From Thalassomonas sp. RHCl1 (GTDB lineage Bacteria; Pseudomonadota; Gammaproteobacteria; Enterobacterales; Alteromonadaceae): a stretch of DNA of 64,000 bases. The notes under the pieces are model-generated. The model was given only the letters and a program-made list of their open reading frames with translations. It had not been told where the DNA came from and ran no database searches. The DNA is taken from the NCBI RefSeq assembly GCF_947387555.1, contig NZ_CANDNZ010000006.1, forward strand, positions 91,482 through 155,481, given 5' to 3'. Shown piece after piece: positions 1 to 16,394 of the stretch (positions are counted from its first letter, which is position 1; each line of letters starts with the position of its first letter). A program made the position numbers and the translations under genes.

Positions 1-34
1 TTCTTTTAAATCAAAGAAAGGTATAAGTGTTTAT

Positions 35-1291
35 TTGCCGCAATTAGAGTTGGGCAGAGCCTTGTTCTTTCATGATGCTTACTTGGCTCGAACTGCTTTG
101 GAACCCGATGCGCTGGGTATTGAGTTTGATATTGTTTCTGATGATATATCTGATACAACGACAGTAAATGTATTGCAATCGTCAGGTTACACCCAAAAAT
201 CGTTTGATAATTATGCTGCCAGGAGGGTGTTAAGCTGGATATTGATTGATCCTGATGCACGTAGATCTTATGAATCCATAGGTCGTTATCAAAAGCTGTA
301 TGGAAAAGAAATGAACGGTTACCGGCATTGGGACTTTCAATTTGAACCGCCCCAATTGTCTAATGCTAAATTTGTGCTCAGGGGAAAATTTGATAGGGAA
401 AGTAATAGTGTGTTCGTCTATGAGATTACTACCATTTCTAATATCACCCATAAGGTACCCAGAAAAGTTGAGTTTTATAGCCCTAAATTTAGGGAATATG
501 TTCGTGGGGAAGGTTCTGGCGGTAGTGGCCCTATAAATGAGCGGCCCGAAGAACATAATGTCCAGGATGGTGAAGATGCCAACTCAAATACTGACCACAC
601 ACAATTGTATGCGCCAGTGGTGGGTGTTGAGTTTGATAATCCCTTTGCTACAACCAAGATCTACAAGAAGAAACAAAAAGGCTCAAGTGGCCGTAAAGAT
701 GATGAAGCAAATGAAGCAGGCAAGGACGTAAGTACAGAAGAGGGAGATACTGGCGGTAATCGTCCGCAAGCTGATTGGGATATTGCCGAAGATAACTCGG
801 ATGACGCGCACCTGTATGCAAATAAATTTAGCTGCTTTCAACGCATGTTAGAATTACTTGAATCGGAGTGTGGTTGTAAAATTACCTCCAATCAAATTAA
901 AAAGTTACCAAAAGTAGGACGATCTGGCAGACATATCCTAAAAACAGACGGTTCTCCCCGCTGTTTGTCTGTTGTAACAGTTATTTGTAACGATAGACAG
1001 TATCATATGCTTGAAGTTGATACCTCTGATGACAGCAAATCATTGTCTACTAAATTGTTAGTTGTAAATAAGCCGGCTAAATGGAGTGAACAGCTAATTG
1101 AATTAGAGCAAAAATTGATGAAAAGCTCTCTCAGCTGGCCTACTGAATTTTTAAATCTCATTTGTGGTGATAAGGGACATAAGAGCATTTCACACCCCCA
1201 AACTCCATCTGAAAACAAAGGATTACTGGATCCTGACTCTGTCAATAAGTGGGCGCAAAGGGTTAAAAGTTGGATGTTGGGAGCACAGTAA
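35..1291 (+). CDS. Hypothetical protein, 418 aa as drawn, with an acidic low-complexity middle (GSGGSGP..., D/E-rich). It may be 5'-partial because the frame stays open to the window edge.
   Basis: Long ORF in the AT-rich island. Start as drawn is TTG at 35 and no in-frame stop lies upstream to position 2, so the true start may be outside the window. I recognise no catalytic motif. Confidence 0.45.
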   Translation: MPQLELGRALFFHDAYLARTALEPDALGIEFDIVSDDISDTTTVNVLQSSGYTQKSFDNYAARRVLSWILIDPDARRSYESIGRYQKLYGKEMNGYRHWDFQFEPPQLSNAKFVLRGKFDRESNSVFVYEITTISNITHKVPRKVEFYSPKFREYVRGEGSGGSGPINERPEEHNVQDGEDANSNTDHTQLYAPVVGVEFDNPFATTKIYKKKQKGSSGRKDDEANEAGKDVSTEEGDTGGNRPQADWDIAEDNSDDAHLYANKFSCFQRMLELLESECGCKITSNQIKKLPKVGRSGRHILKTDGSPRCLSVVTVICNDRQYHMLEVDTSDDSKSLSTKLLVVNKPAKWSEQLIELEQKLMKSSLSWPTEFLNLICGDKGHKSISHPQTPSENKGLLDPDSVNKWAQRVKSWMLGAQ

Positions 1292-1395
1292 ATAATAGTA
1301 ATATATTGCTATTAAATTAGCTTCAGAACAGTAAAAATAGAGTATTTCTTATAAGATAGGGTTAAATAGCACAGAAGGATGTTAACTGAGCGTGT

Positions 1396-1851
1396 TTGCA
1401 TGTAGAATTACCCGCTAAACTCGGTGCGTTAATTTATGGAATATGGTTGTTTATGGAATTTTTAGACGCGATTTTTGTGCTAGCTTTTGGCACTGAAGGG
1501 GAATATAAGGGTAAACCTGAGTACGCAATTCTAGTTTTTTCAATAACATCCTCATTTTTCGGTACGCTAGTTGTCATCCTGGACGCTTTGGTCGTTAAAA
1601 CTTTAAATAAAAATAGTTTCTTGAAATTATCCTATCCTGGCTGGAAGGGGCTTTTAGTTTTTCTTTTATGGGGGGTTGGTGCTGGTATTGGGGGATTTTT
1701 AGGCGCAGCTATTGGTATTTTCGAGATTAATAGAATAGCTTGTGTTGTGGTTGGAACATCATGGCCATTGGTGCTTCCGCGCTTATTATCAACAGCAAAT
1801 AGTGAGTTATCCACTGAAAAAATAGATTTAGGAGTAAATACAAATGGGTAA
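1396..1851 (+). CDS. Small integral membrane protein with about 4 predicted TM helices
   Basis: The translation is dominated by hydrophobic stretches (LGALIYGIWLFMEFLDAIFVLAF..., LLVFLLWGVGAGIGGFLGAAIGIF). It overlaps the next ORF by 8 nt, so the two are likely co-transcribed. Confidence 0.45.
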   Translation: MHVELPAKLGALIYGIWLFMEFLDAIFVLAFGTEGEYKGKPEYAILVFSITSSFFGTLVVILDALVVKTLNKNSFLKLSYPGWKGLLVFLLWGVGAGIGGFLGAAIGIFEINRIACVVVGTSWPLVLPRLLSTANSELSTEKIDLGVNTNG

Positions 1852-2278
1852 TTTAAACTTTTTACTTGGTCGCTCCGATTTTAAAGCTGCGTCAGACATT
1901 ATTGAATCTGTGAGTACATTTCCTCAATTCAATGAGAGAAATGAAAATTTGGCTTTGGCCAGTTCTTTGCTTGTATTTAAAAGTCAATCGCAACAGTGTT
2001 GGTTAATTTTTACTTCTCAAAGAATATATTTTGTTGTGGATGATAATGAAGTCTCTGAAACTAAGACTTTATGGGCCAGAGATCGTGAAAAAATTGTGAA
2101 AAATGGTCGTATAGATCTTGATATGAAGATAATTTCTCAATCAAAAGAAAGTAGTAAATTGTTATTTGGTAAAATGAACAAAGGTTTTTTATTTACTAAC
2201 TCACTATTTAAAGATCAGACAATCACGGGTCTTATATTGAAATTAGTTTCAAACCATTTTTTATCTGTAGAAAATTAA
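1844..2278 (+). CDS. Hypothetical soluble protein, 144 aa
   Basis: ORF overlapping the upstream membrane-protein ORF by 8 nt, same strand, 132 bp upstream of the methyltransferase gene. Confidence 0.4.
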   Translation: MGNLNFLLGRSDFKAASDIIESVSTFPQFNERNENLALASSLLVFKSQSQQCWLIFTSQRIYFVVDDNEVSETKTLWARDREKIVKNGRIDLDMKIISQSKESSKLLFGKMNKGFLFTNSLFKDQTITGLILKLVSNHFLSVEN

Positions 2279-2409
2279 TCTTATTTATAAGTTAATGTTA
2301 TCGATACAAGTATTTTTAGGCTTATTGTTTATCGATAACAGAAAGAACTTGAGTTTACTACTATTCATCGATATAAGTTTGTTGTATATATTTAATTTAA
2401 AATGATTTT

Positions 2410-4047
2410 ATGAGTCCTCATTGCGCAATAAAAAAACGGGAGCTTGGTGCATATTATACTCCTCCTGAGTTAACAAAGGTTCTTGTTGATTGGGCTATAC
2501 GCTCATCAAGAGAAACTGTTCTCGAACCTAGCTTCGGTGGTTGCGGTTTTTTAGAAAGTTGTAAAAGCAGGTTGGAGAAATTAGGGACCAAAAGGCCTTT
2601 CACTAAATTATTTGGAGTAGATATCGATGATAAAGCTTTCGATTATTTACATGATATATTTGGACCTATCGTTGTAACTAAACGATTTATAAAAAAAGAT
2701 TTTATTGGTGTTAATGGTAAAGAATTTTCAGTCAAAAAATTTGATGTACTTTTAGGGAATCCTCCATATGTATCACTTCATAATATGACTCCTGAACAGC
2801 GAGAAAGGTGTTTTAAAGTACTTCATTCTTCACCTTTCGCTGATAAAACTATTGGGCGTAATGCAAGTCTTTGGGGGTTTTTCTTGCTTCATAGCTTGAG
2901 CTTTATTCGAGATAATGGACGGATGATATGGGTTTTACCAAGTAGTCTCTTACATACACATTATGCTAAAGCTTTAATTGAAATATATAAGAAGCATTTT
3001 TCTAATATTAAGCTAATTAAGCTAAATCAACGTTTTTTCAAAACTGAAGGTACCGAAGAAGTTTCTGTAATACTAGCCGCGGAAGGCTTTTCTCAAGAAA
3101 TAATTGATCATAACTTAACAGGCCTTTACGTCGCTAAAAGTGTTAATGAATTGAGTGTTATTCTTAACAATAAAGAAATTTTAGAAAAAGACCAGATAGC
3201 TAATCATAAATTAAATTTAGTTAATGAAGATGTTTTAGCGACGTCTGAGTTATTAAAACAAAATTCTGTTAATTTAGGTGATATTAGTAAAATTGTTATT
3301 GGTATGGTGACTGGTGCGAATGACAAGTTTGTTATTAAACCTTCAACATCAAGCAATCTTGGTTTATCTGCTCAAGATATAAGGCCCGTTATTTCTAAAT
3401 TTAAACATCTTTCAGGGATTATTCATGATAAAAGGAGTCATGAAAAACTCATCTCTGAGGATGAAAGATGTCTTTTGGTGTGTCCTTCTGATATACAAGA
3501 AAAACATACATCTGTTCGAAATTATCTAGCTACAATTGACCGGGTAAATAGAAAAACTAACAGAACATTCCCTAAACGAAAATTTTGGTTTTACCCTGAT
3601 GATGAGCAGATACCAGATGCGTTTCTTTCCTATATGATTGATTCAGGTCCTCGTTTAGTTATTAATTCAGCGAAAATAAACTGCACTAATACAATACATC
3701 GTGTGTTTTTTAATGGTGGTATTAGCTTTAGAAAAAAGAAAGCATTAGCTATTTCAATGTTATCAAGTTACACACGTTTTTCTGCTGAAATAGTCGGCCG
3801 TTCATATGGTTCGGGGGTTTTAAAGTTAGAGCCTTCAGCAGCAAAACAGTTAAGCATAATATACAACAATGAGCTATTAGAGCCTTTGTTATCTATTTCA
3901 AAAGAAGTTAATGATTTACTTTCTCGGGGCCTGATTACAAATGCAACGACTATCGTTGATGAATTATTAACAGAGCACTTTGCTATTGATTTTAAAAAGT
4001 TTAGTGATGCAGTTATTGTTTTAAGAAAAGATAGATATGAAAGTTAA
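2410..4047 (+). CDS. N6-adenine-specific DNA methyltransferase, gamma class (TaqI/Eco57I-like)
   Basis: Motif X GAYYTPPELTKVLVDW near the N-terminus. Motif I (AdoMet-binding) LEPSFGGCGFLE. Motif IV LLGNPPYVS (NPPY = amino-methyltransferase catalytic motif). The order X-I-IV defines the gamma class. ATG at 2410. Confidence 0.85.
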   Translation: MSPHCAIKKRELGAYYTPPELTKVLVDWAIRSSRETVLEPSFGGCGFLESCKSRLEKLGTKRPFTKLFGVDIDDKAFDYLHDIFGPIVVTKRFIKKDFIGVNGKEFSVKKFDVLLGNPPYVSLHNMTPEQRERCFKVLHSSPFADKTIGRNASLWGFFLLHSLSFIRDNGRMIWVLPSSLLHTHYAKALIEIYKKHFSNIKLIKLNQRFFKTEGTEEVSVILAAEGFSQEIIDHNLTGLYVAKSVNELSVILNNKEILEKDQIANHKLNLVNEDVLATSELLKQNSVNLGDISKIVIGMVTGANDKFVIKPSTSSNLGLSAQDIRPVISKFKHLSGIIHDKRSHEKLISEDERCLLVCPSDIQEKHTSVRNYLATIDRVNRKTNRTFPKRKFWFYPDDEQIPDAFLSYMIDSGPRLVINSAKINCTNTIHRVFFNGGISFRKKKALAISMLSSYTRFSAEIVGRSYGSGVLKLEPSAAKQLSIIYNNELLEPLLSISKEVNDLLSRGLITNATTIVDELLTEHFAIDFKKFSDAVIVLRKDRYES

Positions 4048-4081
4048 GCTTTAAAATTAATGTAGATCATCAGGAAGATAT

Positions 4082-6463
4082 ATGCTGGATAAGATAATAA
4101 AGGAAAAACTTAATTTTTCAGTCGATGGGCGTTTGATCTCAGAATTAGGTGAAAAGTTAGTTACAAAAAATTACCTGGCTTTAGGTGAATTAATTAAAAA
4201 TTCATATGACGCAGACTCGGAAAATGTAGAAATTAAATTTAACAATGTTCGAGAAGGGAACGGTACAATTGTTGTAAAAGATCTTGGTACGGGGATGTTG
4301 TGGGAAGAAGTCCGAGATTGTTGGATGAGGGTATCAACATCTAATAAAGAAACAAGTCCCGTATCTTTGATATATGGTAGAAAAAAAAGCGGCAGCAAAG
4401 GTATTGGTCGGTTCGCTTGTCAAAAATTAGCCGCGGCGGTGAATCTTAAAACCGTTGCTATTACAGATGATCCGAATATTGCGCAAGTCACTACTCTTGA
4501 TATTGAGTGGGAGGATTTTAAATTAGGTAAAGATTTAATTGAGATTAAATGTAAATCGGAATACTACTTTACCGAGAAGTCAAATGTAACAATAGGCACA
4601 ACGATAACTCTTATCAATTTAAAGCAAAAATGGAACCAAATTAGTTACAACAGTTTGCAAAGACAATTGGCATCTCTTTCAATCTCATCGCCTGTTCGAC
4701 GAGAAGACTTTGAAGAAGATCCTGGTTTTGAAATTTTAGTAAGTGCAGATGAATTTGAAAGTGGTAACTATAAACTGTCGGAAAAAGTTCTAGATGCTAG
4801 TTGGGGGCGCGTCAAAGGTAGTGTCGCTGAAGATGGTACTGTAAAATTATTTTTTGATGGAAAGCTAATAGGAAAGAAAGAACATACTTTACATGAACAA
4901 TTTCCTATTTTAAAACATGCTGAATTTGATGTAAGTTGCCTACCGCATGTGAAAGCATATCAGAGAAACCCTCAATTAATGAATTCTAAGCAAATGAAAA
5001 TAATTGAGGACACACACCCCGGTATAAAAGTATATAGTGAAGGTTTTAGAGTTTACCCGTATGGGCAGGAAGGGGATGATTGGTTAGGGTTAGACCGCGA
5101 TGTAGGTCGTCGTAAAGCCAAAATAGACAATAATGAATTAGGGAAAATAGCATCAAGTTATGGGTTAGATAAAAGTAGGGTTATTCTTGATTTATTTAGG
5201 AATGCTAACATTGTTGGAGCTGTATACATAGATACTAACATCAACCCTGCCTTTGAAATTAAACTCAATAGGGAAGGTTTCGTTGAAAATGAAGCTTCTT
5301 TGATGCTGTCTAAACTTTTGCGTTATATTGTTGAATGGATGACGGTCCAATATTCATATTTTAAAGTGCTTTTTAGTGAGCATGAATTAGAGCAGCTAAG
5401 AAAAGATTTTGATGACAAATTGGGTAGTAACAATTCGGAGGTTGCTGAAAATAAAATCATTTATGATGAAGAACCAGGAGGTGTAATACCAAAACCTCCG
5501 CTTTCTATTGATAATAAAAAAGAGCAATTTGATAAAGCGATGACGCTCTTATTGAATGAAGCAAAATTCAATAGAGAAACTAGTAATAAGTCTTATTTAG
5601 AAGATATTGCACCTGAAAGAGCTAGTGATCAGTCAGTTGCAACAAATAAAGATTCAGAATTACTTGAAGTCGCAAGTAAAATAATAACAACAGAATTTAA
5701 TGCAAATAAAAATGAGTTAACCTTGTTACGCGCCATTGCGTCATCAGGGCCTTTATTTTTTGTTTTTGCACATGAATTTAAAAGTTTAGTTTCAAATCTG
5801 GATACAGATGCAGGGAATATAGAGCAATGGATCTCTAAAAATAGTAAAAACGATACTCGTTGGCTTTCAGAAATAGCCAAATCAATGAGACTTACTCGTC
5901 AACGGTTCTTGTCACTAGAAAATTTAATTGGTGTGTTTGCATCAACGCATAAAATCAAAACTAAGAGAATCAAAGTTGCGCAAGCGATTGAAAAGGTGTG
6001 TGCTGGATTTGAATTTGTTACAAGCAGCAGTAATATTAAAATTGATACTAAAGGTATCGATGCATTATTAAAAACTCAAGAAATTTCAGATGCTGCGTTT
6101 TATTCAATAGTGGTTAATCTTGTATCAAATGCGATAAAAGTTGTTTTAGCGAAAGGGACACGAGAGATTAGAATTACAGCTTTTCGAAAAAATAATCTTG
6201 TTATGAGGGTTGAGGACAAGGGGATAGGGCTACCTGAAGATAAATGGGATGATGTGTTTTTACCACTAGTAACTGATCCAACAGGTGAAATGTATAATGA
6301 GCTATTTGATAAAGTAGGCACGGATGAATTATCAGTTCTTGGACGAGGTACAGGTTTAGGATTGAACATTGTTAAAGGAATGGTACAAGATAATGGAGGA
6401 AGGGTGAAGTTTATAAAGCCTTCTGATGGGTGGAAAACTTGTGTGGAAGTTATACTCCCCTAG
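4082..6463 (+). CDS. Atypical sensor histidine kinase. The N-terminal domain is a GHKL/Bergerat-fold ATPase (MORC/Hsp90/MutL-like). It is followed by an H-box and a C-terminal canonical histidine-kinase HATPase_c.
   Basis: N-terminus: N-box ELIKNSYDA, G1 DLGTGM, G2-like SKGIGRFA. Middle: H-box-like FVFAHEFKSLVSNL. C-terminus: N-box NLVSNAIKV, G1 EDKGIGLPE, G2 GRGTGLGLNIVKGMVQDNGGRV. AGGAAG RBS before ATG at 4082. The stop lies 13 nt before the next gene. Confidence 0.75.
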   Translation: MLDKIIKEKLNFSVDGRLISELGEKLVTKNYLALGELIKNSYDADSENVEIKFNNVREGNGTIVVKDLGTGMLWEEVRDCWMRVSTSNKETSPVSLIYGRKKSGSKGIGRFACQKLAAAVNLKTVAITDDPNIAQVTTLDIEWEDFKLGKDLIEIKCKSEYYFTEKSNVTIGTTITLINLKQKWNQISYNSLQRQLASLSISSPVRREDFEEDPGFEILVSADEFESGNYKLSEKVLDASWGRVKGSVAEDGTVKLFFDGKLIGKKEHTLHEQFPILKHAEFDVSCLPHVKAYQRNPQLMNSKQMKIIEDTHPGIKVYSEGFRVYPYGQEGDDWLGLDRDVGRRKAKIDNNELGKIASSYGLDKSRVILDLFRNANIVGAVYIDTNINPAFEIKLNREGFVENEASLMLSKLLRYIVEWMTVQYSYFKVLFSEHELEQLRKDFDDKLGSNNSEVAENKIIYDEEPGGVIPKPPLSIDNKKEQFDKAMTLLLNEAKFNRETSNKSYLEDIAPERASDQSVATNKDSELLEVASKIITTEFNANKNELTLLRAIASSGPLFFVFAHEFKSLVSNLDTDAGNIEQWISKNSKNDTRWLSEIAKSMRLTRQRFLSLENLIGVFASTHKIKTKRIKVAQAIEKVCAGFEFVTSSSNIKIDTKGIDALLKTQEISDAAFYSIVVNLVSNAIKVVLAKGTREIRITAFRKNNLVMRVEDKGIGLPEDKWDDVFLPLVTDPTGEMYNELFDKVGTDELSVLGRGTGLGLNIVKGMVQDNGGRVKFIKPSDGWKTCVEVILP

Positions 6464-6475
6464 CGTGGAAATAAT

Positions 6476-7528
6476 ATGAATAAGAAATTTAATATTTTGT
6501 TTGTTGACGATGAAGTCAACGGAAATAGAAAAGGTTTAATCGCTAACATTAATTATGATGAGCGTTTTAATGTTACAGAATATCATCCTGTAGACGCAAT
6601 TGAAGATCTTGATAAAGGACTTATTGAAGATAAGTATGCATTAATTATTGTTGACTATAAGTTGAGCCATGAACCAAATAGAAACAATGTATCATGTCAC
6701 TCAAATGGATATTCATTAACTAGCTTGTTTAAAGAAAAACTTCCCAATACCCCTGTGTATTTAATCAGTCAAATTCTAACAGATGATATCTCCATGGGTG
6801 AACATTACGATAAAATGTTTTCTCATAGTTTCCTTACTTCAGAAAAAGGAAGAGATTTATTGGCCTATGACTGTGAAGATCATCAACAACTTTTAAAAGA
6901 AGCTCGAAATTTAAATTCTTTTGAAAAAATATGTGAATTTTTGATGGTACCTAATGAATGTAAAGATGCCTTTAAAGTGGCTTTACCAATTGAGTTTAGA
7001 AAAGGTCTATCAAACAACTTAGATAATAATTCTTCACAAGTCTTAGATAAGGAACGCAGTTTTATAAGGTTTGCTAAATGGATAAATCAAATATTCTTAC
7101 TTAAAAGCGGACCTTTAATTGATGAGTTGGAGGTTGCTGTTTTATTTGGCCTTGATTATGAATATTTTAAAACAAACTTTCGTAAAGAATATGAAAGCGA
7201 TTTAATGGCATGTGAATATAAGGGGATTTTTGCGAAAACGAATGAAAAAAAATGGTGGAGCCAAGCTGTTTTCGATTTTGCGGTTTCTTTAGCTGATGAG
7301 GATTATATTTCATATCCTTGGAAAGTTGTTCCTAAAAAGCTAAATGTTGAAGAAAAATTTTTATCAAAATGTGCTTTATGTCAAGAAAACACCCCTGAGT
7401 GTACGGCATTTGATAGAGATGAAACCGAAGGAAATACGAAATATGCAGCTCATTGGAGCTGCACCGTTGCTGCAGAAGATCAGGTCGATCTAGCTGGGTT
7501 TAATCCTGTTTTATATTTGGATGATTAG
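6476..7528 (+). CDS. Response-regulator receiver (REC) domain protein with a roughly 220-aa C-terminal output domain of unknown function that contains a Cys cluster
   Basis: N-terminus ILFVDDE (acidic pocket) and ALIIVDYKL (putative phospho-acceptor Asp) are typical CheY-like REC motifs. The C-terminus has CALCQENTPEC...HWSC. I recognise no HTH. Confidence 0.7.
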   Translation: MNKKFNILFVDDEVNGNRKGLIANINYDERFNVTEYHPVDAIEDLDKGLIEDKYALIIVDYKLSHEPNRNNVSCHSNGYSLTSLFKEKLPNTPVYLISQILTDDISMGEHYDKMFSHSFLTSEKGRDLLAYDCEDHQQLLKEARNLNSFEKICEFLMVPNECKDAFKVALPIEFRKGLSNNLDNNSSQVLDKERSFIRFAKWINQIFLLKSGPLIDELEVAVLFGLDYEYFKTNFRKEYESDLMACEYKGIFAKTNEKKWWSQAVFDFAVSLADEDYISYPWKVVPKKLNVEEKFLSKCALCQENTPECTAFDRDETEGNTKYAAHWSCTVAAEDQVDLAGFNPVLYLDD

Positions 7529-7536
7529 GAGTTATT

Positions 7537-8280
7537 TTGGCAAAGAAGGATTTTTTTTACGAAGCCTATAAAAAAAATTTATGTAACTTTTTTAAATTTT
7601 TATCAGCGGATACACGTGTTAGTCAAGCTCTTGTAAAAACTCTTAGTGAAATAAAAACTAATCAGCAAGTTCTCCAGGCCGCAACTAAAAGCAAAAAAGT
7701 GAAGGTGGACTTACCAAGCTTTGAAATACCGTTATTAAACTCGGTAAAATGTGGAGTAGATACAGATTCTTTTTTATCTATAGGCGGTAAAATCGAATTT
7801 AATGAGCAAGGTATTGTAAATCAAAGTATATCTGCTTGCCTTATTATAAGGCCCCATGAGGATACAAAAGTTTGTGAAAAGAATGCTACAGGCGTAATGA
7901 AAGCTGGAAATAAGTATATAATAAGGCGTTTTCATTTTGATATAGATTCAAGTCAAACTAGTAAGGATCGGCCAATATCACATGTTCAATATGGTGGAAA
8001 TATTCAAGATGAACAAAAAGGAAGCTCGGAATACCAATTAATCAATTCTATTGATCTGCCTCGAATTCCCTCATTCCCACTAGATGTAGTACAGGTTATC
8101 AACTTTTTAATGGATCAATTCGATACAACTTTGAAACAACAATTCAAATTACCTAGCTGGAGGGGAATAGTTGTGGATAATGATGCAATTTGGAAGAAAT
8201 ATTTTTTTGAAAAAATGATTTCAAAAACAAGTAAGCGTAAGACAATGTATGAATGGGCCTGTGATCCGATTAGCTTTTAA
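7537..8280 (+). CDS. Hypothetical protein, 247 aa, last gene of the methyltransferase / histidine kinase / REC cluster
   Basis: TTG start 6 nt after an AGGAG RBS and 9 nt after the REC gene stop. No recognisable motif. Confidence 0.45.
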   Translation: MAKKDFFYEAYKKNLCNFFKFLSADTRVSQALVKTLSEIKTNQQVLQAATKSKKVKVDLPSFEIPLLNSVKCGVDTDSFLSIGGKIEFNEQGIVNQSISACLIIRPHEDTKVCEKNATGVMKAGNKYIIRRFHFDIDSSQTSKDRPISHVQYGGNIQDEQKGSSEYQLINSIDLPRIPSFPLDVVQVINFLMDQFDTTLKQQFKLPSWRGIVVDNDAIWKKYFFEKMISKTSKRKTMYEWACDPISF

Positions 8281-8527: not shown

Positions 8528-9151
8528 CTATTGAAACCGCTTACACAGCTCTTCCCAGTTTGGTTGCGCTGTTTTTAAATCTGTCGGCTCGAAGCGATCC
8601 CTATATGGTGAGATTGCAGGTTGCATCCAACAGAGTTGTCTATCTGCCTCATGCTTATCTTCCTTTGTCATAAGCTCTCTGCTCTCAAGATATGTGTACA
8701 AGGCACGAAGGTAGAATGAGTAGAGGTCGTTTAAGTAGGGAGTGCATCCAACACTCGTGTTTTCAGCTCCGCACCCTAAGTTAATCAGATAAGCAGATGA
8801 TTCTCTTACGCTCCGCGTGCCCATCGCTATCTGGTTCAGTGAGATGCGACCTAGATTTTTGTTCGCGAGGTCTACAGCCGTTTGCGCCGCGAAGACCGCT
8901 GCGTTAGCTCTAGTTACCGCTGTTTCGGCTTTTCTTCGTTCCACAGTCGATTCTGAGGCTTGATACAGTGCGATAAGAGCAGCAGCGATTGCAACTATCA
9001 GCCCTAAAATCGCTGGCATACCCGTTGCTGTTATAACGCCAAACCATGATTGGTGGTGGCCACAATGGAGGCATATAACCGCGTCCTTCGGAATTGGACC
9101 TACATGGCACCAGCGACAACGCCGGTCGAGAGCGTTCACGTTTTCTTTCAT
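8528..9151 (-). CDS. Zn-ribbon plus single-TM membrane protein (CxxC...CxxC N-terminus)
   Basis: N-terminal RRCRWCHVGPIPKDAVICLHCGH (four Cys / His zinc ribbon), then the hydrophobic helix MPAILGLIVAIAAALIALY. It is convergent with the upstream cluster. Confidence 0.45.
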   Translation of the reverse strand: MKENVNALDRRCRWCHVGPIPKDAVICLHCGHHQSWFGVITATGMPAILGLIVAIAAALIALYQASESTVERRKAETAVTRANAAVFAAQTAVDLANKNLGRISLNQIAMGTRSVRESSAYLINLGCGAENTSVGCTPYLNDLYSFYLRALYTYLESRELMTKEDKHEADRQLCWMQPAISPYRDRFEPTDLKTAQPNWEELCKRFQ

Positions 9152-9388
9152 AGTGTCTATCGAGCTATAAATTTTTTGATATTTGGGATTAGGTAAAACA
9201 ACTCAAATAATTGCAAATTATTAATCTATAGTCTACTTAGCTTTGTTGAATGAATATGGTGGTATCGTTTAAGTTTAATCAAATAATAAATAAAACCTAA
9301 ATTAATATTGAGATTGAGGGAGCATAGTCTTCTATCATTACTTAAACCAATTTGAAAAATAGCCTAAAAACTAGAGAGGTTCCTCACC

Positions 9389-10684
9389 ATGGCTATATCA
9401 AAACTGTTTATTAGAGTTTTATTGTTTTTTATTTTCTGCGGAATAGCACATGCAACCGTGTGCCGTTTGCCTGGCTTAAATGGTTTTAATGAATCACAAA
9501 TTCGCGGTGAAAAATTTATTAGGTCTACGACATCAAATTTAAAAGACGTAAGTCTATACATTGAGTTGACTGAAAATGGGCCATGGTACCACTCAAATTA
9601 CATTACACCAGGATTTGAACACCCTACTAAGATTGGTAGAGAAGATATTTATGATGCACAACGTGCGTACAATAACATTGCCATAACACAGGAAATACTT
9701 GATAAAGATTCAAGTATAATAGGCCGTTTGGAAAAAGCCTATGAAGAAAACTCTACCATTTATGTTGACCAAAGCGTATTAAATTCAGATGGTACTTCTA
9801 AGATTGATTTTGGAAGAGCCAAGAATCTAATCGCGGTTGATGGTAAAACTGGAAAGCAGTTGAGTGAAATAGTAAAGATTGATCGCACTCTAGGCAGGAA
9901 AACATTGCTAACCGGTCGAGCACTTGGGTGTTGTTTTTTTGTTTTTCCTCCTCATTTTTTAAAGACATTAGTTGCTCAATTAAGGTCTAAATTATTTAAT
10001 TCTAAAAATGTTAATATCGTAAGTTTGGTAAAAGATTCTGCTACTGCTAGGGCATTTAAAGAGAGTAAATTTCTGTCTAAAAATGTTAAGCAACCTGACG
10101 GATTAGAAACTAAAGTCGCTCTGAGAAATCAAATCAAGGATAGCCGTGGAAAAACGCTTATTGTAGTTGGGCATGTTGAAGGCAAAAAGTTTGTCACTAG
10201 GGATGAAGCAGGGAACATGGTCTTTGATTATGATGTTGCTGACTTACATACTTTAGCAAAAAAGAACAACGTGCAACTGATCGCGCTTGGATGTGAAACA
10301 GCAAAAAATGTTGATTTGGCTACAACTGGTAGTGGTGTAGTGAAAAAATTTAACACTGTAGATGCTGTATCTAATTTAGAGGCAGCTTTTTCATCTTCGA
10401 AAAACTATGCAGAGTTTTTCGAAAACCTTACTAGTCCTGATCTAATGTTTGTTGCTGGTGAAACGTTTTTATCAAAGTCTCCAGAAGCTATTGCCAAAGT
10501 TTCCATTTTTTCTAGAATTAAAGGTTCTGTAAGTAAAAGAATACAAGTGGGGGCTGCTTATCTTCTTGGGAGGGGGAGCAAAATAAATTTCTCGAAGCCG
10601 ACTAAAATGGTAGCAGGACAAGAGCTAACCGAAAGTGAACGTCTCAAAATAATATTGGAAAAACTTACTGGTGAGACAAGGTAA
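9389..10684 (+). CDS. Secreted protein with a signal peptide and a possible CHAT/caspase-like His-Cys dyad
   Basis: Signal peptide MAISKLFIRVLLFFIFCGIAHA. LIVVGHVEG, and about 45 aa later LIALGCETAK, resembles the CHAT-domain H...LSACET catalytic dyad arrangement. Confidence 0.45.
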   Translation: MAISKLFIRVLLFFIFCGIAHATVCRLPGLNGFNESQIRGEKFIRSTTSNLKDVSLYIELTENGPWYHSNYITPGFEHPTKIGREDIYDAQRAYNNIAITQEILDKDSSIIGRLEKAYEENSTIYVDQSVLNSDGTSKIDFGRAKNLIAVDGKTGKQLSEIVKIDRTLGRKTLLTGRALGCCFFVFPPHFLKTLVAQLRSKLFNSKNVNIVSLVKDSATARAFKESKFLSKNVKQPDGLETKVALRNQIKDSRGKTLIVVGHVEGKKFVTRDEAGNMVFDYDVADLHTLAKKNNVQLIALGCETAKNVDLATTGSGVVKKFNTVDAVSNLEAAFSSSKNYAEFFENLTSPDLMFVAGETFLSKSPEAIAKVSIFSRIKGSVSKRIQVGAAYLLGRGSKINFSKPTKMVAGQELTESERLKIILEKLTGETR

Positions 10685-10687
10685 TTA

Positions 10688-11311
10688 ATGAAAAATTCTC
10701 CTAGTATACTGACCCCTATAAATGAAGCTGTTAATTTTTTAGAACTCATACAACCAGAACATCTTAGCAAGTTCCGAGAAAGCTACCCGGAACTATCTGA
10801 GGAGTTGAAGCCTGGAATAATTGCCGGTTCAGAGGATTATTCTTCTGAGTTTATTAAGGCTAAGGCAAATATTATGCTACATACCCTGGAGAGAGCTATC
10901 AATGCAGTGAAGATAGGTTCTCGCAAGGCTGCACAAAGGATAACTTGGGTTAATCGTATTCGTACTGGGAGCGAAATATTAGTGCTTGTGGGAAGTTCTT
11001 CAGTTCTGGGAACTATTAACCTTGCAAATGAAACACCACACATTTTGGCTGCTGCTATAACATTAATCGCAAGCTGCGGAAGCCTGCTTGCGAAACATAC
11101 ATCAAGAATAACTTCTCCAAAATTAGGTAATATTAATGTCGCATATACTACGCTATCGACTTTAGTCTTTGAAACGAGTGAATTAATAAAGGAATTAAAA
11201 CTTGCTTTGCGCTTTTCACTTCCATTAGAAGATATTTCTGATCTAATATCTCGAGGTAACCAATTGATGGCCCGGGTAAATAAGTGGGACTCTCAAGTAT
11301 TGAAGATCTAG
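10688..11311 (+). CDS. Hypothetical protein, 207 aa (helical)
   Basis: ORF starting 4 nt after the previous stop, so probably translationally coupled to the secreted protein. Confidence 0.4.
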   Translation: MKNSPSILTPINEAVNFLELIQPEHLSKFRESYPELSEELKPGIIAGSEDYSSEFIKAKANIMLHTLERAINAVKIGSRKAAQRITWVNRIRTGSEILVLVGSSSVLGTINLANETPHILAAAITLIASCGSLLAKHTSRITSPKLGNINVAYTTLSTLVFETSELIKELKLALRFSLPLEDISDLISRGNQLMARVNKWDSQVLKI

Positions 11312-11524
11312 TTATTTAGTGTTTCATTGATATTGTGAGTTGTGTAAAGAACTTTATTGTTTAAATTTTTAGGTTGGAATTGTATCTTGGCTTTATAGTA
11401 AAGCTCTTTATTTTTTAAAGCTCTGAATTTTATAGTCACTTAATAGGTGTTATAGAGGAATTGAGTAAAGGACTTTATTGTTCTCCTACATTACTTGTGG
11501 GTGAGTAATAAAGTATCATACTGA

Positions 11525-11571
11525 AAACGCCCTGCTTTACTCAAAATATGAGTAAAGCAGGGCGTTTTTTA
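11525..11571 (+). terminator. Rho-independent terminator
   Basis: Stem AAACGCCCTGCTTTACTCA, a 6-nt loop, then TGAGTAAAGCAGGGCGTTT followed by a T-run. Confidence 0.6.
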
Positions 11572-11611
11572 TGGCATCGAAAAAAGTCAGTTTACTATTG
11601 TGTGATTATAG

Positions 11612-12805
11612 ATGTTTCTCCGTCTGTCTTTGGCTATAGTTAAACGCTCAACGTTAGTTTTAAAAGGATTTAAAATGACCAGCCCTTCTGTTCAAGAAAA
11701 AGCTATAGAGATTTGCTTTCCGGAAAACAATGCCTTTGCATTGCCGTGCGATCCTAATAACCCTGACGAAATTGCCTGCTTTCGAAAAGATAATCCACAT
11801 ATTAAAAGCACTGTTATTCCTCCAGGTACACCGTATATTCTTCGAAGGGAGTTCGGTGAAAATCCCCAGCCCTGGCAGGAGTTGAGGCCTGATCTCTCTG
11901 ATACCTTTACCCGGCTGAATAATCTGGATGCCGAAACCAGACGTAATATTGCCAATATGAACAAGTCCTTTGGCAGTGAATTATTGGTTGCCTTGTCTGA
12001 ATTCCATCGTGTTGAAATTGCTCCTTTGGTGTTAAGAACTAAAGAATACGCAAAGGATAAGGTATGGAAAACAGTGAATAAGGAGTCTGGCGGTTTGGTT
12101 GGAGCCGGTGTAGGGGCATTGGATAATCGTTTAACCAACTTTAATAAGGCGGTTCTGGAGAGTCAGCGTGCACTGGAAGAAGTACGTAAAGGCTATCAGG
12201 CTAAAATCCCCAAGCTGGAGCTATATAAATTAGAGCAGACCGCTAGAGAGTTGTTGCGTGAAATGAAATATAACTTTCAGGCTGAGCTGACTAAATATAT
12301 GGGCAATGCCAGGGCAAGTGCCAGAGGTACTGTATGGAGCAATCCGGATCGTGCCATAGCTATTGCCAAGAGCGGTCGAACAGCTACTCCTATTCAATTA
12401 TCAAACGCTAAAGAAATGCAAAGGGTTAAGGAATTTGGCATGGTGGGGAAGTTGGCCGGTCCAGGGCTGTTGATACTTGATATTGGAGTTAGAGTTGGCA
12501 ATGTGCATGTAGATCAGATGTCGGGACTAGATTGGCAAAGACGGGCTGTTGTTGAGACTACGGGATTAGGAACTGCCGGCTTTTTGGGAACTGCAGGTGC
12601 ATATGCCGGTGGTGCTGCAGGTACCGCAGCGATTAGTGCTCTTAATGTTGCTTTATTGGCAACACCTGTGGGATGGTGTGTAGTTATCGGTTCGGGCCTG
12701 GCTTTGGGGTATTTGGCTGCTAAAGGAGGTGATACGGCTGGCCAGTGGCTCGCCGGGTTGTTTTATGATGCCAGTGCAAGTATCAAATGGAACCGCTTGT
12801 TTTAA
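11612..12805 (+). CDS. Toxin-like protein with a C-terminal Gly/Ala-rich glycine-zipper membrane domain (putative pore-forming or polymorphic toxin)
   Basis: C-terminus TTGLGTAGFLGTAGAYAGGAAGTAAISALNVALLATPVGWCVVIGSGLALGYLAAKGG has repeated GxxxG/A motifs. A small 2-TM protein gene follows 14 nt later. The gene sits in a duplicated cassette. Confidence 0.55.
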   Translation: MFLRLSLAIVKRSTLVLKGFKMTSPSVQEKAIEICFPENNAFALPCDPNNPDEIACFRKDNPHIKSTVIPPGTPYILRREFGENPQPWQELRPDLSDTFTRLNNLDAETRRNIANMNKSFGSELLVALSEFHRVEIAPLVLRTKEYAKDKVWKTVNKESGGLVGAGVGALDNRLTNFNKAVLESQRALEEVRKGYQAKIPKLELYKLEQTARELLREMKYNFQAELTKYMGNARASARGTVWSNPDRAIAIAKSGRTATPIQLSNAKEMQRVKEFGMVGKLAGPGLLILDIGVRVGNVHVDQMSGLDWQRRAVVETTGLGTAGFLGTAGAYAGGAAGTAAISALNVALLATPVGWCVVIGSGLALGYLAAKGGDTAGQWLAGLFYDASASIKWNRLF

Positions 12806-12819
12806 TTTGAGGCTTTAGC

Positions 12820-13170
12820 ATGATTGAGATTACTACAGAGCTATTGTTTGCCATCATTTTTGCACTATCAATTTTTGTGGCGGGGATTGCTACTTTTTGT
12901 TTTATCCGGATTTCCGGTAAGCATATCGAACGGGAAATGAAGAAGGAAGGAAAGGTACCGCCGGGGTGGGATTCAACTATGGGATTCAGATATGGGCTTT
13001 ATGCCATAACTATTGTTCGTAACTCCATAGGGCCCATGTCATTTGTTGATGATGAAGCTGTGTTGCGCCATGCCCGTAAAAAAGACAGATTTTTAGCGTT
13101 GTTTTTGGTGATTTCTACGATTGTGTTGATGGTTGTAGGTTGCCTGGTTTATTTTTTATATGCGTCCTAG
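12820..13170 (+). CDS. Small 2-TM membrane protein, putative cognate immunity protein
   Basis: 116 aa with hydrophobic N- and C-terminal helices. It lies immediately downstream of the toxin-like gene. An intact paralogue (about 70% identical by eye) sits at 13957-14310. Confidence 0.5.
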   Translation: MIEITTELLFAIIFALSIFVAGIATFCFIRISGKHIEREMKKEGKVPPGWDSTMGFRYGLYAITIVRNSIGPMSFVDDEAVLRHARKKDRFLALFLVISTIVLMVVGCLVYFLYAS

Positions 13171-13383
13171 TTTGGAATTTTTATTCGAATACGAAGACAT
13201 ACATGCCATTTTCAGTATGAAACTTTATTTTTAAAGCCTGGAAAAACTCAACAGAAGAATGGGCCTTGTGAGTAATAAAGTATCATATTAAAAAAGTCAG
13301 TTCACTATTGCGTGATTATAGATGCTTCTCCGCCTGTTTTTGGCTACAGTTAAACGCTCACGTTAATTTTAAAAGGATTTAAA

Positions 13384-13940
13384 ATGACCAGCCCCTCAGT
13401 TCAAGAAAAAGCGATAGATATCTGCTTTCCGGACAATAATGCCAATGCCTTTGCATTACCGTGTGATCACAATAACCCCGATGAGATTGCCTGTTTTCAC
13501 CGAGATAATCCGCATATCAAAAATACCGTTATTCCACCGGGGACGCCTTATATTTTCCGAACGAGGCTGGCGAGAACCCTCGTCCCTGGCAAGAGCTGAG
13601 GCCTGATCTATCCAGTACCTTTACACAGTTGAATAACCTACCTGCGGAAACCAGGCGCAATATTGCAAATATGAATCAGGCCTTTGGCAGCGAGCTGCTT
13701 GTTGCCTTGTCGGAATTTCATCGTGTTGAAATAGCTCCTTTGGTGTTAAAGGCAAAAGAGTACAGCGAGAATAGGATATTAAAAACACTAAATAAGGAAT
13801 CTGGTGGGTTGGTGTATTGTCATAGGTTCGGCAGTAGCCCTGGGATATTTTTCAGCTAAAGCCGGTGATTCGGCGGGACAATTTTTTGCCGGAATATTTT
13901 ATGATGCTAGTGCAAATATTAATTGGAATCGTTTGTTCTA
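13384..13940 (+). pseudogene. Degraded paralogue of the 11612-12805 toxin-like gene, with a frameshift after about codon 57 and a roughly 180-codon internal deletion
   Basis: N-terminus MTSPSVQEKAIDICFP... matches copy 1 and then shifts frame (ENPRPWQELRPDLSSTF in another frame). KESGGLV is fused directly to GWCIVIGSAVALGYFSAKAGDSAGQFFAGIFYDASANINWNRLF*. The roughly 120-bp upstream leader is also duplicated (13269-13383 matches 11574-11690). Confidence 0.7.
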
Positions 13941-13956
13941 ATTTGAGGTTTTATGA

Positions 13957-14310
13957 ATGATTGAAATCACAACTGAGCTAGGGTTTGCCATTTCTTTTGC
14001 TTTATCACTGTTTGCAATGGCTATTGCTACTTTTTGTTTTATCAGAATATCAGGAAAACACATTGAAAGGGAAATGAAGAAAGAGGGGAAGCTACCCCCT
14101 GGGTGGGATTCAACTATGGGGCTTAGGTACGGATTTTATGCAATAACTATTGTACGTAACTCAATAGCACCCATGTCATTTGTTGATGATGATGCAGTGT
14201 TGCGTTTTACTCGAAAAAAAGATCGTTACCTTGCTTATTTCTTTGTCATTACGTCGGCTATATTTTTGCTGATTATTTTTACTGCTTACTTGTTCTTTGA
14301 TTTAGAGTAG
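13957..14310 (+). CDS. Paralogous small 2-TM immunity-like protein, intact (an orphan immunity gene after the degraded toxin)
   Basis: 117 aa, MIEITTEL...FCFIRISGKHIEREMKKEGK.PPGWDSTMG.RYG.YAITIVRNSI.PMSFVDD.AVLR, nearly colinear with the 12820-13170 protein. Confidence 0.55.
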   Translation: MIEITTELGFAISFALSLFAMAIATFCFIRISGKHIEREMKKEGKLPPGWDSTMGLRYGFYAITIVRNSIAPMSFVDDDAVLRFTRKKDRYLAYFFVITSAIFLLIIFTAYLFFDLE

Positions 14311-14346
14311 GAAAAAGGTTTATGTCTTTATTTATATCTACAAGAT

Positions 14347-14430
14347 ATGCCTTATCTTTTGCGTAAAAATATTGATGGTAACTGCCGATCTTGGCAAGAA
14401 TTAAGGCCAGAGCAATCTAATCCCCTTTAA
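14347..14430 (+). pseudogene. Third short remnant of the toxin-like gene
   Basis: Encodes MPYLLRKNIDGNCRSWQELRPEQSNPL*, which matches PYILRREFGENPQPWQELRPDLSDTF from residues 75-100 of the 397-aa toxin. Confidence 0.4.
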
Positions 14431-14706
14431 TTAGCAATCAGGTTTTTATTGAGCCTTGACCAATTAAATGACCCGTTGTAAAGCTTTACTTTTCAACCTA
14501 TTAGATGGTGTTCGCTAGTTGTAAACCTTAAGGGCCACTTTCCAAATTACCAACAAAATAAAACACCAGGCTACTGTTGATTTATCCATCTTTCTAGTCT
14601 TTGCTTATGAGTGCTTACAGCAACCCCTGTAACATAAGCCGCACCCCCTGAGTGCATCAACCACTCAGGAGGTGCTAACCAAAACGAACTACACTAGGAG
14701 TCCGTC

Positions 14707-14991
14707 ATGGCTGAATATCATCATACGTCAGAGCCACGCCCGGCAAAAGCAAAATATCCCACCAGCCGCCAGCTCACGGTGCTGGAAACCGCTTGCCAAA
14801 CAAGTCTTAAGCCCAGGGGCATAGGTGTTAATTATGTGCCGGTCAAGCTGGAGCCTTGTATTGTCCTGAGGGGGAAATGGTTGAAGCAGGCCGGTTTTAC
14901 TATCGGTGAAAAGATCACGGTAACTGCTCTTGGGAGGCAATTAGTGATCCAACCCGCCCAGGTTTTACCTGACTCGGCAGATAAGCGATAA
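14707..14991 (+). CDS. symE: SymE-family type I toxin (AbrB/MazE-fold, SOS-induced endoribonuclease-like)
   Basis: RQLTV...VKLEPCIVLRGKWLKQAGFTIGEKITVTALGRQLVIQPAQ parallels E. coli SymE NRQLTV...[33 protein letters not shown]. A terminator follows. Confidence 0.65.
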   Translation: MAEYHHTSEPRPAKAKYPTSRQLTVLETACQTSLKPRGIGVNYVPVKLEPCIVLRGKWLKQAGFTIGEKITVTALGRQLVIQPAQVLPDSADKR

Positions 14992-15003
14992 GGCATCAAC
15001 CAG

Positions 15004-15038
15004 GCTGCTGCACCTGAAGTTGGTGCAGCACTTTTTTT
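15004..15038 (+). terminator. Rho-independent terminator after the symE-like gene
   Basis: GCTGCTGCACC, loop TGAAGT, TGGTGCAGCAC, then TTTTTTT. Confidence 0.6.
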
Positions 15039-15467
15039 GGCATGTTTTTGCCGTTAACTTTATTGGCGGGATGGAAAATATAGCTGCCATTGTTACTTTA
15101 TTGTTATTTTCACACTCTTCACTTTAAAAGCGGTGCAAAATTTAGTATAAAACTTGTGCTCATTTTATATACAAGGACTGTATTACTGTGGCCCATTCCC
15201 TTTTTGTTATTTTTATCGCTTGCTTTATTGCTGATCTTTACGCCACAGCTCACTCTTTTTTAAGGCTTTTTGCTTACGGCAATAAAGATCCTAAAACCGT
15301 GGATATCACTCCGGACTTTGCCCGTTATCGCGCCGGGGTTAGCCGGGACATCAGCCATCACAGTACATAGTTATTTTAAAGACCTGTGAAGCTCTTGTTT
15401 GTATCTATGTCAGCAGCTGCCATTCAGTGCCGGTTAAGCAAGAGCTCATACTTTATTTACTCACTAA

Positions 15468-16394
15468 ATGAACATCTCAATGGAGGAGAATACAATGAAT
15501 GATATAAACACAACGCTTACCGCGCCTGCACTACCCGGTATCAAAAAAAGGAATGAAATTTTTGATTTTTTATTTTATGACATAGGTTCACTCTCAGCAG
15601 AAGAGAAAAAGAACCTGTCACCCATGGAAAATCACGAAGGCTCAATTATTGTGGTATCGCCTAAAGCAGCAAACAAAGAAATACTGGAGTTTGCCACAGC
15701 TGCCGACTTTATCAAGGCTGCTCCCCGTGAGGTAAAAGCCTTGGTGGTTGCCGGTGTTGGCAGCTCGGTTATTGGCACCGCATCTCTGGCACGTAATGTC
15801 GCAAATACCTACAACATTGCAGTGGCGGGTATTGTTTCCGGATACGGCGCCGCCGATCTGATTTCAGAAGCCTTGGGTGGCTGGTTTTTCTATGGTGCGG
15901 CTGATAAACACCGGCTTAAAATGAGAGAGTCGATGGGAGACTTCAGTTCAATGTTTACTGCGAATCCATTTTTCCAGTCAATGCTGCAAGCTGTACCGCA
16001 GGCTACAGAGCATGATGGAAAAAATACCGATATTGGGGCATTAAATGAAATATTGGCAGCCAAATCCATCGATCTATCGCTTATTGTCGGACACAGCAAA
16101 GGCAACCTGTTGATAGATTATGCTTTAGAGAAATTAGCCAAAAAATTTGCCGACACTGGTCACAGGTATTACGACGCATTGCGTATCGTGTCATTAGGAG
16201 CCGTGACCAATTTTCCTCCGCAATTTACCAATGTCTACCAGTTCCTCGGCGGTATTGACTGGTTTGGCGGACTAAATTCCCGCCTGGGGCTGGAGCATAC
16301 AAAAGTGCCGAGTGCATGGCATCATTTAAACACTGAACTCCCCTATCACATTTCGATCGAATCGCTGTTAAAAGAAAATGTTGCCCTTAGCTAA
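15468..16394 (+). CDS. Alpha/beta-hydrolase-like protein (putative lipase/esterase) with GHSKG nucleophile elbow
   Basis: GxSxG pentapeptide VGHSKGNLL, preceded by a Gly-rich VVAGVGSSVIGTASLA segment. 308 aa. Confidence 0.45.
   Translation: MNISMEENTMNDINTTLTAPALPGIKKRNEIFDFLFYDIGSLSAEEKKNLSPMENHEGSIIVVSPKAANKEILEFATAADFIKAAPREVKALVVAGVGSSVIGTASLARNVANTYNIAVAGIVSGYGAADLISEALGGWFFYGAADKHRLKMRESMGDFSSMFTANPFFQSMLQAVPQATEHDGKNTDIGALNEILAAKSIDLSLIVGHSKGNLLIDYALEKLAKKFADTGHRYYDALRIVSLGAVTNFPPQFTNVYQFLGGIDWFGGLNSRLGLEHTKVPSAWHHLNTELPYHISIESLLKENVALS

Follow-up and report, generated by a model that had tools for sequence, protein, structure and literature searches.

A four-gene cassette of a methylase and a predicted phosphorelay beside a Tn7-type tnsE gene of Thalassomonas sp. 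RHCl1, a predicted relative of the Ambrosia anti-phage system

Four adjacent genes of Thalassomonas sp. RHCl1 are located at positions 2410–8280 of a 64,000 nucleotide (nt) stretch of DNA, here termed the window (RefSeq assembly GCF_947387555.1, contig NZ_CANDNZ010000006.1, positions 91,482–155,481 of the forward strand). They encode a predicted N6-adenine DNA methylase, a predicted sensor kinase, a receiver protein and a small protein termed protein 4. The four genes are one system, as their neighborhood is conserved in loci from many phyla. The favored reading, with a probability of about 0.55, is that they form a mobile cassette directed against invaders (phages or plasmids) and of the same kind as Ambrosia of Pseudomonas aeruginosa, i.e. 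similar to restriction-modification (R-M) systems and with an attack arm gated by a His-Asp phosphorelay. Any single mechanistic step is held with less confidence than this overall reading. The genes are as follows.

2410–4047, plus strand, N6-adenine methylase gene, 545 amino acids (aa)
4082–6463, plus strand, kinase gene, 793 aa
6476–7528, plus strand, receiver protein gene, 350 aa
7537–8280, plus strand, protein 4 gene, 247 aa, TTG start

A sequence-only reading of this DNA had pointed to four co-directional open reading frames in the region, and all four are found at these positions on the plus strand. The gaps between them had been given as 35, 13 and 9 nt; the measured gaps are 34, 12 and 8 nt. 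Each of the earlier figures was thus off by one, and the tight packing stands. The module has a GC content of 31–35% vs approximately 50% further along the window, and the AT-rich setting that had been described is therefore confirmed.

The arrangement was examined by a scan of one genome per species, in which at least 586 stretches were found to encode relatives of the kinase. The best 80 loci, together with those found earlier, make up a census of 90 loci that was searched with a profile for each component; the counts are those after one iteration. A receiver type protein is present in 81 of the 90 loci, an Eco57I-like N6 methylase in 75 and protein 4 in 68. The order kinase–receiver–protein 4 is seen in about 80 of the 90 loci and is never changed in the census, and the genes are adjacent and often overlap, while the methylase gene is found upstream or downstream of them and on either strand. 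Several of the loci with no match are contigs that end early, and the rest keep open reading frames of the right size and at the right place that display no Pfam domain. This conservation of the neighborhood shows that the arrangement is not due to chance. It also bears out the earlier proposal that the methylase is hard-wired to the kinase and receiver pair.

The cassette has a wide range, i.e. Proteobacteria, Bacteroidota, Chloroflexota, Planctomycetota, Actinomycetota, Verrucomicrobiota, Campylobacter, Staphylococcus, haloarchaea and Methanoperedens. A megablast search of E. coli genomes with the cassette gave no match. All the contexts of diverse kinase homologs that were looked at have the same four genes. 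Citrobacter and Enterobacter display the order methylase–kinase–receiver–protein 4 and the genes adjoin an integrase, and in a Methanoperedens archaeon the order is kinase–receiver–protein 4–methylase. Vibrio harveyi has kinase–receiver–protein 4 with the methylase on the opposite strand. The locus of a Chloroflexota bacterium (L008) shows the methylase gene, an extra gene and then kinase–receiver–protein 4.

L008 7209–7943, extra gene for a 244 aa protein between methylase and kinase, in Chloroflexota only, no Pfam match

The cassette is found on mobile DNA. In the window, an open reading frame with the TnsE_C domain is directly upstream of the module.

35–1291, plus strand, 3′ part of a Tn7-type tnsE (Pfam TnsE_C, 2.5e-43)

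As judged from the tnsE side, the module would thus be the first cargo of a Tn7-like transposon in Thalassomonas. The same location is seen in two other species. In Shewanella algae (locus L090, tns genes at 1–5232) the same four genes come straight after tnsB-C-D-E. Aeromonas caviae (locus L091, full tnsBCDE at 11206–16316) has them next to tnsE in inverted orientation; neither locus has a gene between tnsE and the cassette. Elsewhere the cassette adjoins integrases or insertion sequence elements and is found in genomic islands. Its recurrence as the first Tn7-like cargo indicates that it is compact and portable.

The methylase displays the Pfam domains N6_Mtase, Eco57I and M_Eco57I_C and matches the PADLOC model MTase_II at 8e-83. 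The motifs YYTPP, FGGCGF and NPPY that had been picked out earlier are present in its translation. It is a predicted stand-alone gamma-class N6-adenine DNA methyltransferase of the M.Eco57I type with its own target-recognition domain. Of the parts of a type II R-M system, the methylase with its target-recognition domain is present, and no recognizable endonuclease domain was found among the cassette proteins. This agrees with the earlier view that the methylase has no recognizable restriction endonuclease as a partner; a resemblance to GHKL-type restriction enzymes is confined to the kinase's ATPase domain. The catalytic half of the Vibrio methylase (L006 12307–13989) shows 64% identity to the gene product of window positions 2410–4047, and the Vibrio kinase shows 35–42%. 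These discordant similarities indicate that the methylase has been swapped between cores, as would be expected of a partner that is functionally required but exchangeable.

The kinase, which is 100% identical to an NCBI entry of Thalassomonas sp. RHCl1, has the Pfam domains HATPase_c_3 at residues 33–157 and HATPase_c at residues 673–793. Its layout is a MutL/MORC-type GHKL ATPase with a middle domain (residues 1 to approximately 430), a linker (431–545), a DHp domain with H564-E565, and a C-terminal ATP-binding domain. A profile of 15 family members aligns to the entire DHp+CA core of HK853 with an E-value of 1e-11, and its N-terminus aligns to MutL. The two GHKL domains and the match to HK853 uphold the earlier description as a GHKL-ATPase-sensor histidine kinase, and the protein is predicted to be a soluble sensor kinase. 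Residues N40, D67, G69 and G71 of the first ATP site, the phospho-His H564, and N683, G714 and G756/758/760 of the second ATP site are 98–100% conserved in 82 homologs. The first approximately 185 residues match BbrUII/HgiDII models at 2e-20 (NCBIfam) and 5e-10 (PADLOC). The linker (window positions 5372–5716) has 17–27% identity vs 35–73% in its flanks and is partly of low complexity; its role may be that of a mere tether or of a recognition segment that diversifies. Two kinase homologs are split in two open reading frames, at L018 8971–11441 (Halolamina pelagica) and L021 3732–5943, and these could represent a frameshift, a pseudogene or an assembly error.

The receiver protein consists of a REC domain (residues 1 to approximately 120, with D11, D12 and the phospho-acceptor D60), a helical domain, and a C-terminal zinc-ribbon-like cluster of the C2HC type (C299, C302, H326 and C329). 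D60 is conserved, and the residues of His-to-Asp transfer are 98–100% conserved in the family alignment. The classical two-component core is present, i.e. the DHp phospho-His, the N, G1 and G2 boxes, the acidic pocket of the receiver and its acceptor Asp. The stretch from residue 212 to 236 follows the classical helix-turn-helix pattern, and neither A221 nor G225 varies among 10 close and 7 distant homologs. The statement of the sequence-only reading that the output domain is not DNA-binding is thus not established. None of 12 members displays a Pfam helix-turn-helix match in the C-terminal domain, the fold searches were swamped by REC matches, and the receiver protein has no match in PHROGs and no record in an exact look-up.

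The 131 nt gap ahead of the methylase gene contains a predicted promoter. ATCGATA is present three times within 74 nt of this gap; the whole 64 kb window has 22 strand matches to it where 5.4 are expected.

2300–2377, plus strand, predicted promoter of the methylase operon, −35 TTGAGT at 2349–2354 and −10 TATAAG at 2372–2377
2300, 2331 and 2367, ATCGAT(A) palindromes, three copies in the predicted promoter
L090 5255–5290, L091 5245–5285 and L092 2870–2905, palindrome promoters in relatives

An alignment of four loci (Thalassomonas, Shewanella, Aeromonas and Methyloprofundus) shows that the block ATCGATATAA is invariant and keeps a constant distance to the methylase ATG. This block is a palindrome that overlaps the −10 sequence TATAA(A/G). 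Three of the four loci have a further ATCGA ahead of a −35 sequence TTGAC(C/A); the spacer is 17 nt and its sequence differs among the four loci. The Citrobacter locus has ATCGCGAT adjoining a TATATAAT in place of the ATCGAT arrangement. A generic promoter and terminator scan, which gave fewer hits than shuffled sequences, missed the site at 2300–2377, and the promoter call therefore rests on the cross-species alignment. The site is a predicted sigma70-like promoter with palindromes of the kind used in the autoregulation of R-M systems.

The sequence-only reading had held that no named system matches this arrangement. This claim does not stand, as related kinase and receiver pairs were described in 2021 (PMC8011034), and Ambrosia has since been named and validated (10.1101/2025.09.30.679545). 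Ambrosia in P. aeruginosa consists of AbrR (XRE), AbrA (N6 methylase), AbrB (a 747 aa double-GHKL kinase), AbrC (receiver) and AbrD (HNH). It is anti-phage, and the changes N40A in AbrB, D60A in AbrC and H60A in AbrD abolish defense. The genes are transcriptionally induced on infection and host toxicity was not measurable (10.1101/2025.09.30.679545). The 2021 family, which was described from comparative genomics alone, comprises kinases of the architecture HATPase_c_3 + HEF_HK + HATPase_c that pair with Response_reg_2 proteins beside R-M genes, mostly C5-cytosine methylases, and Vsr or HNH_2 genes lie downstream of the receiver-like gene in this family (Bellieny-Rabelo et al. 2021; PMC8011034). 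These pairs were proposed to regulate R-M systems and to derive from paraMORC ATPases (PMC8011034).

Protein 4 displays a conserved set of residues, H133-x-D135, P146-x-x-H149 and P175-R176. AbrD (HNH) and the Vsr and HNH_2 proteins hold the same position in their gene clusters, and because of this position and the conserved His/Asp/His/Arg set protein 4 is a candidate effector. No match to protein 4 was found in Pfam, NCBIfam, PADLOC, PHROGs or PDB sequences, profile search included. An exhaustive profile search returned 359 clusters, all of them stand-alone proteins, and gave no informative fusions. At loci missed by the protein 4 profile, ten proteins in the fourth position display no Pfam domain and thus no known nuclease, and for this reason the argument from displacement of a nuclease draws only on Ambrosia and the 2021 family. 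The search for a nuclease, NADase or PNP fold that had been suggested earlier, for both the receiver's C-terminal domain and the 247 aa protein, found none, and the abortive-infection or restriction mechanism proposed in the sequence-only reading, in which one of these two acts as effector, is therefore conjectural. Since neither domain has a match, the effector role of protein 4 and a DNA-binding output of the receiver are drawn from position and sequence patterns.

A working scheme may be put together from these parts. The MORC-like half of the kinase would clamp DNA or sense an infection cue in an ATP-dependent manner, a proposal modeled on GHKL clamps and paraMORC3/VcSduA. Sensing would lead to autophosphorylation of H564 by the C-terminal kinase domain, and the phosphoryl group would pass from H564 to the receiver's D60. 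Once phosphorylated, the receiver would use its helix-turn-helix-like segment and zinc-ribbon C-terminal domain to activate the operon at the ATCGAT promoter and/or license protein 4 directly. Protein 4 would be the effector; the likeliest form is a metal-dependent nuclease whose fold is undescribed and which acts through the conserved His-Asp-His-Arg set. The methylase would mark DNA such that self and invader are handled differently and, from the Ambrosia data, need not work as in a classical R-M system. It is a tentative suggestion that protein 4 founds a new effector fold, probably that of a metal-dependent nuclease (His-x-Asp / Pro-x-x-His / Pro-Arg), which is switched on by a phosphorelay from a DNA-sensing MORC/MutL-like ATPase.

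Several points weigh against an anti-invader cassette of the Ambrosia kind. No PADLOC v2 model calls the cassette as a system. Protein 4 has no detectable likeness to any nuclease or known fold, and the receiver's C-terminal domain has no match in Pfam or in PDB sequences when searched with a 59-member profile of this domain alone. Each of the partner proteins differs from its Ambrosia counterpart. AbrC is 209 aa long with a C-terminal region assigned by its authors to a winged helix-turn-helix; the two receivers have only the REC fold and Asp60 in common and show no significant BLASTP similarity. AbrD is an HNH nuclease, whereas protein 4 displays neither similarity to AbrD nor an HNH Pfam match nor a His-Me-finger fold, and AbrD homologs were not found in the 90 loci, except for one unrelated weak match. 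AbrA is a shorter methylase of the MmeI type with 22% identity that spans the catalytic core only. No HTH_3/XRE protein comparable to AbrR is encoded by the open reading frames that flank the cassette in the window. The Ambrosia methylase did not protect phage DNA and the role of methylation is unclear there (10.1101/2025.09.30.679545). Comparison of loci with and without the motif, by identity of the target-recognition half of the methylase and of the helix-turn-helix-like segment, did not discriminate the reader of the palindrome, for which the methylase, the receiver protein and a host factor are all candidates.

Other readings of the four genes differ in how much of this they explain. The output may be purely post-translational, where the phosphorylated receiver binds and activates protein 4, or its own zinc-ribbon acts on DNA, and the operon is constitutive. 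This would resemble Detocs, a phage defense system with a DtcA kinase, a DtcB buffer receiver and a DtcC receiver-PNP effector that has a different sensor and no methylase. Phospho-activated fusions of REC with an effector, as in Detocs, provide a precedent. The lack of a Pfam helix-turn-helix match in the 12 members fits this possibility, and the receiver and protein 4 genes adjoin or overlap in all cases, suggesting that their products form a complex. However the pattern at residues 212–236 with its invariant A221 and G225, the conserved promoter with palindromes upstream and the induction of Ambrosia transcription by infection all count against it, and a purely post-translational output is considered rather unlikely.

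The cassette may also be a selfish epigenetic or addiction module, in which the kinase and receiver tune the methylase in a new host and protein 4 is a toxin that kills cells losing the element, so that the transposon or island is stabilized. The cassette is always on mobile DNA, the palindromes of the methylase promoter resemble sites of R-M autoregulation, and regulation of R-M systems by such pairs was proposed by the 2021 authors (PMC8011034). However, addiction and defense can coexist in R-M systems, and Ambrosia protects against phage with no measurable host toxicity. A conserved MORC-like ATPase with intact catalytic residues is also hard to explain by establishment control alone, and an addiction module is judged quite unlikely. 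The last possibility is that of chance neighbors, i.e. an orphan methylase beside an ordinary cytoplasmic two-component system that serves host genes. The NCBI labels are in keeping with it (“ATP-binding protein” and “response regulator”), and the defense models call none of the proteins. However the four genes occur together in different phyla and domains, with a methylase linkage that survives changes in position and strand; the distribution is sporadic and borne by islands or transposons; and no gene is present between tnsE and the cassette in Shewanella and Aeromonas. Chance association is thus hardly credible and is effectively refuted by the neighborhood census. The census and the mobile setting exclude both a housekeeping two-component system and an unlinked orphan methylase, the two scenarios that the sequence-only reading had named as fatal to its proposal.

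If protein 4 is indeed a new effector switched on by the phosphorelay, as tentatively suggested, the cassette would be a widespread restriction-like immunity in bacteria and archaea in which the signal for “foreign DNA” is carried by phosphorylation, and recognition and cleavage are not directly coupled. Two of its proteins have parts with no recognizable relatives, i.e. the output domain of the receiver and the whole of protein 4. The kinase is a test case of how GHKL DNA clamps, the prokaryotic kin of the eukaryotic MORC chromatin ATPases, may turn a signal on the state of DNA into an output.

Two further genes are located between tnsE and the methylase gene in the window.

1396–1851, plus strand, optional accessory gene 1, small glycine-zipper-like membrane protein (GVGAGIGGFLGAAIG)
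1844–2278, plus strand, optional accessory gene 2, 144 aa soluble protein, 8 nt overlap with gene 1

The true start of accessory gene 1 is probably the ATG at about position 1453. Open reading frames placed likewise in Citrobacter/Enterobacter (L001), Klebsiella (L093) and Vibrio harveyi (L006) encode products with 53–54% identity to that of gene 1, and hydropathy analysis of the latter gives two to three transmembrane segments. For accessory gene 2 the identity to the equivalently placed open reading frames of L001 and L006 is 50–52%, and L093 carries this gene too. Neither gene has a family match (for gene 1, in Pfam, NCBIfam, PADLOC and PHROGs). The pair lies right against the kinase gene in Vibrio, and it is absent from the Shewanella, Aeromonas, Methyloprofundus and archaeal loci and from those of other phyla that were examined. 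Thus the accessory pair is optional and outside of the core. It could provide an accessory membrane effector, or be an independent two-gene module that travels with the cassette.

Downstream of the cassette there are three open reading frames ahead of a group of toxin-like genes.

8528–11311, three open reading frames between the cassette and the toxin-like genes, 207 aa (minus strand), 431 aa (plus strand) and 207 aa (plus strand)

These three have no match in Pfam, NCBIfam, PADLOC or PHROGs. Window positions 11612–13170 encode a 397 aa protein with a glycine-rich hydrophobic C-terminus followed by a 116 aa membrane protein, and positions 13384–14310 show a degraded repeat of this pair in which the first gene is fragmented and the second gene, of 117 aa, is intact. 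The pair with its degraded copy looks like a toxin/immunity type of cassette with a spare immunity gene. No family matches were found for the pair or the copy, and the earlier labeling of the neighbors as toxin/immunity and type I toxin genes is not confirmed.

Among known defense systems, Detocs has in common with the cassette the His-Asp phosphotransfer from a kinase to a receiver protein. No PADLOC model of Detocs is matched by the window proteins or by those of three distant loci. The match of the methylase to PglX of BREX/Pgl is weak (PADLOC 4e-6; NCBIfam 11.6 bits where the cutoff is 500 bits), and PglZ and BrxC were not found. The receiver matches PDC-M60C weakly (PADLOC, E-value 0.004), with no other component of PDC-M60 found and no match in distant members, and this candidate was dropped. 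MADS and Mza, like BREX and Detocs, were rejected, with matches at the domain level only. A HATPase/REC system predicted by DefensePredictor is named in a figure legend and nowhere else, and its correspondence to the cassette could not be established.

Similarity to the BbrUII/HgiDII enzymes (NF050001; REase_II PDLC03419) is confined to the ATPase domain. The score is 72.7 bits vs a cutoff of 550, and the remainder of the window protein is a kinase. Iyer, Abhiman and Aravind (2008) described paraMORC ATPases in R-M operons and did not describe the kinase/receiver branch (PMC2292703). In the validated defense protein paraMORC3, the Shedu type I-D protein VcSduA, the ATPase is needed for defense and was proposed to control the C-terminal nuclease (PMC12137116). 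The cassette kinase likewise has an N-terminal MutL/MORC-type GHKL ATPase and a middle domain, and is found in R-M or defense contexts on mobile DNA. However the output of its ATPase is a histidine kinase core and not a nuclease or TIR domain, and the signal exits by phosphotransfer.

The 2021 HEF_HK/Response_reg_2 family also has a soluble HATPase_c_3 + DHp + HATPase_c kinase beside an atypical receiver in an R-M context, and this receiver displays no further known domain. The window clade differs in its linkage to Eco57I-like N6 methylases and to protein 4. With HEF_HK (PF19191, cutoff 24.1 bits) the H-box of the window kinase scores 12.6 bits (E-value 0.2), a Geobacter member, the best of the clade, scores 19.8 bits, and four other members give no match. 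Response_reg_2 (PF19192) matches none of 7 members searched at E-values up to 1 and none of 5 more searched at up to 0.01.

Ambrosia is a distant relative of the cassette. Both have the order methylase, approximately 750 aa kinase with HATPase_c_3 and HATPase_c, receiver and small fourth protein. The window kinase is colinear with AbrB over approximately 400 aa (27% identity to the first 399 aa, E-value 1e-28 by BLASTP), and probably falls below the 500-bit AbrB cutoff of the Ambrosia authors. The residues N40 of AbrB and D60 of AbrC correspond to the conserved N40 and D60 of the cassette. The cassette receiver differs by an unrelated C-terminal domain of approximately 230 aa with the zinc cluster. 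Ambrosia is found mainly in Pseudomonadales (10.1101/2025.09.30.679545), whereas the window clade is found in many phyla and in archaea. From these comparisons the cassette is best described as a predicted sister clade of Ambrosia, with the same logic and a homologous sensor kinase, a different receiver output, fourth protein and methylase subfamily, and a wider range. If this clade defends its hosts, the Ambrosia principle, in which parts resembling those of R-M systems are combined with two-component signaling, reaches far beyond Pseudomonadales.

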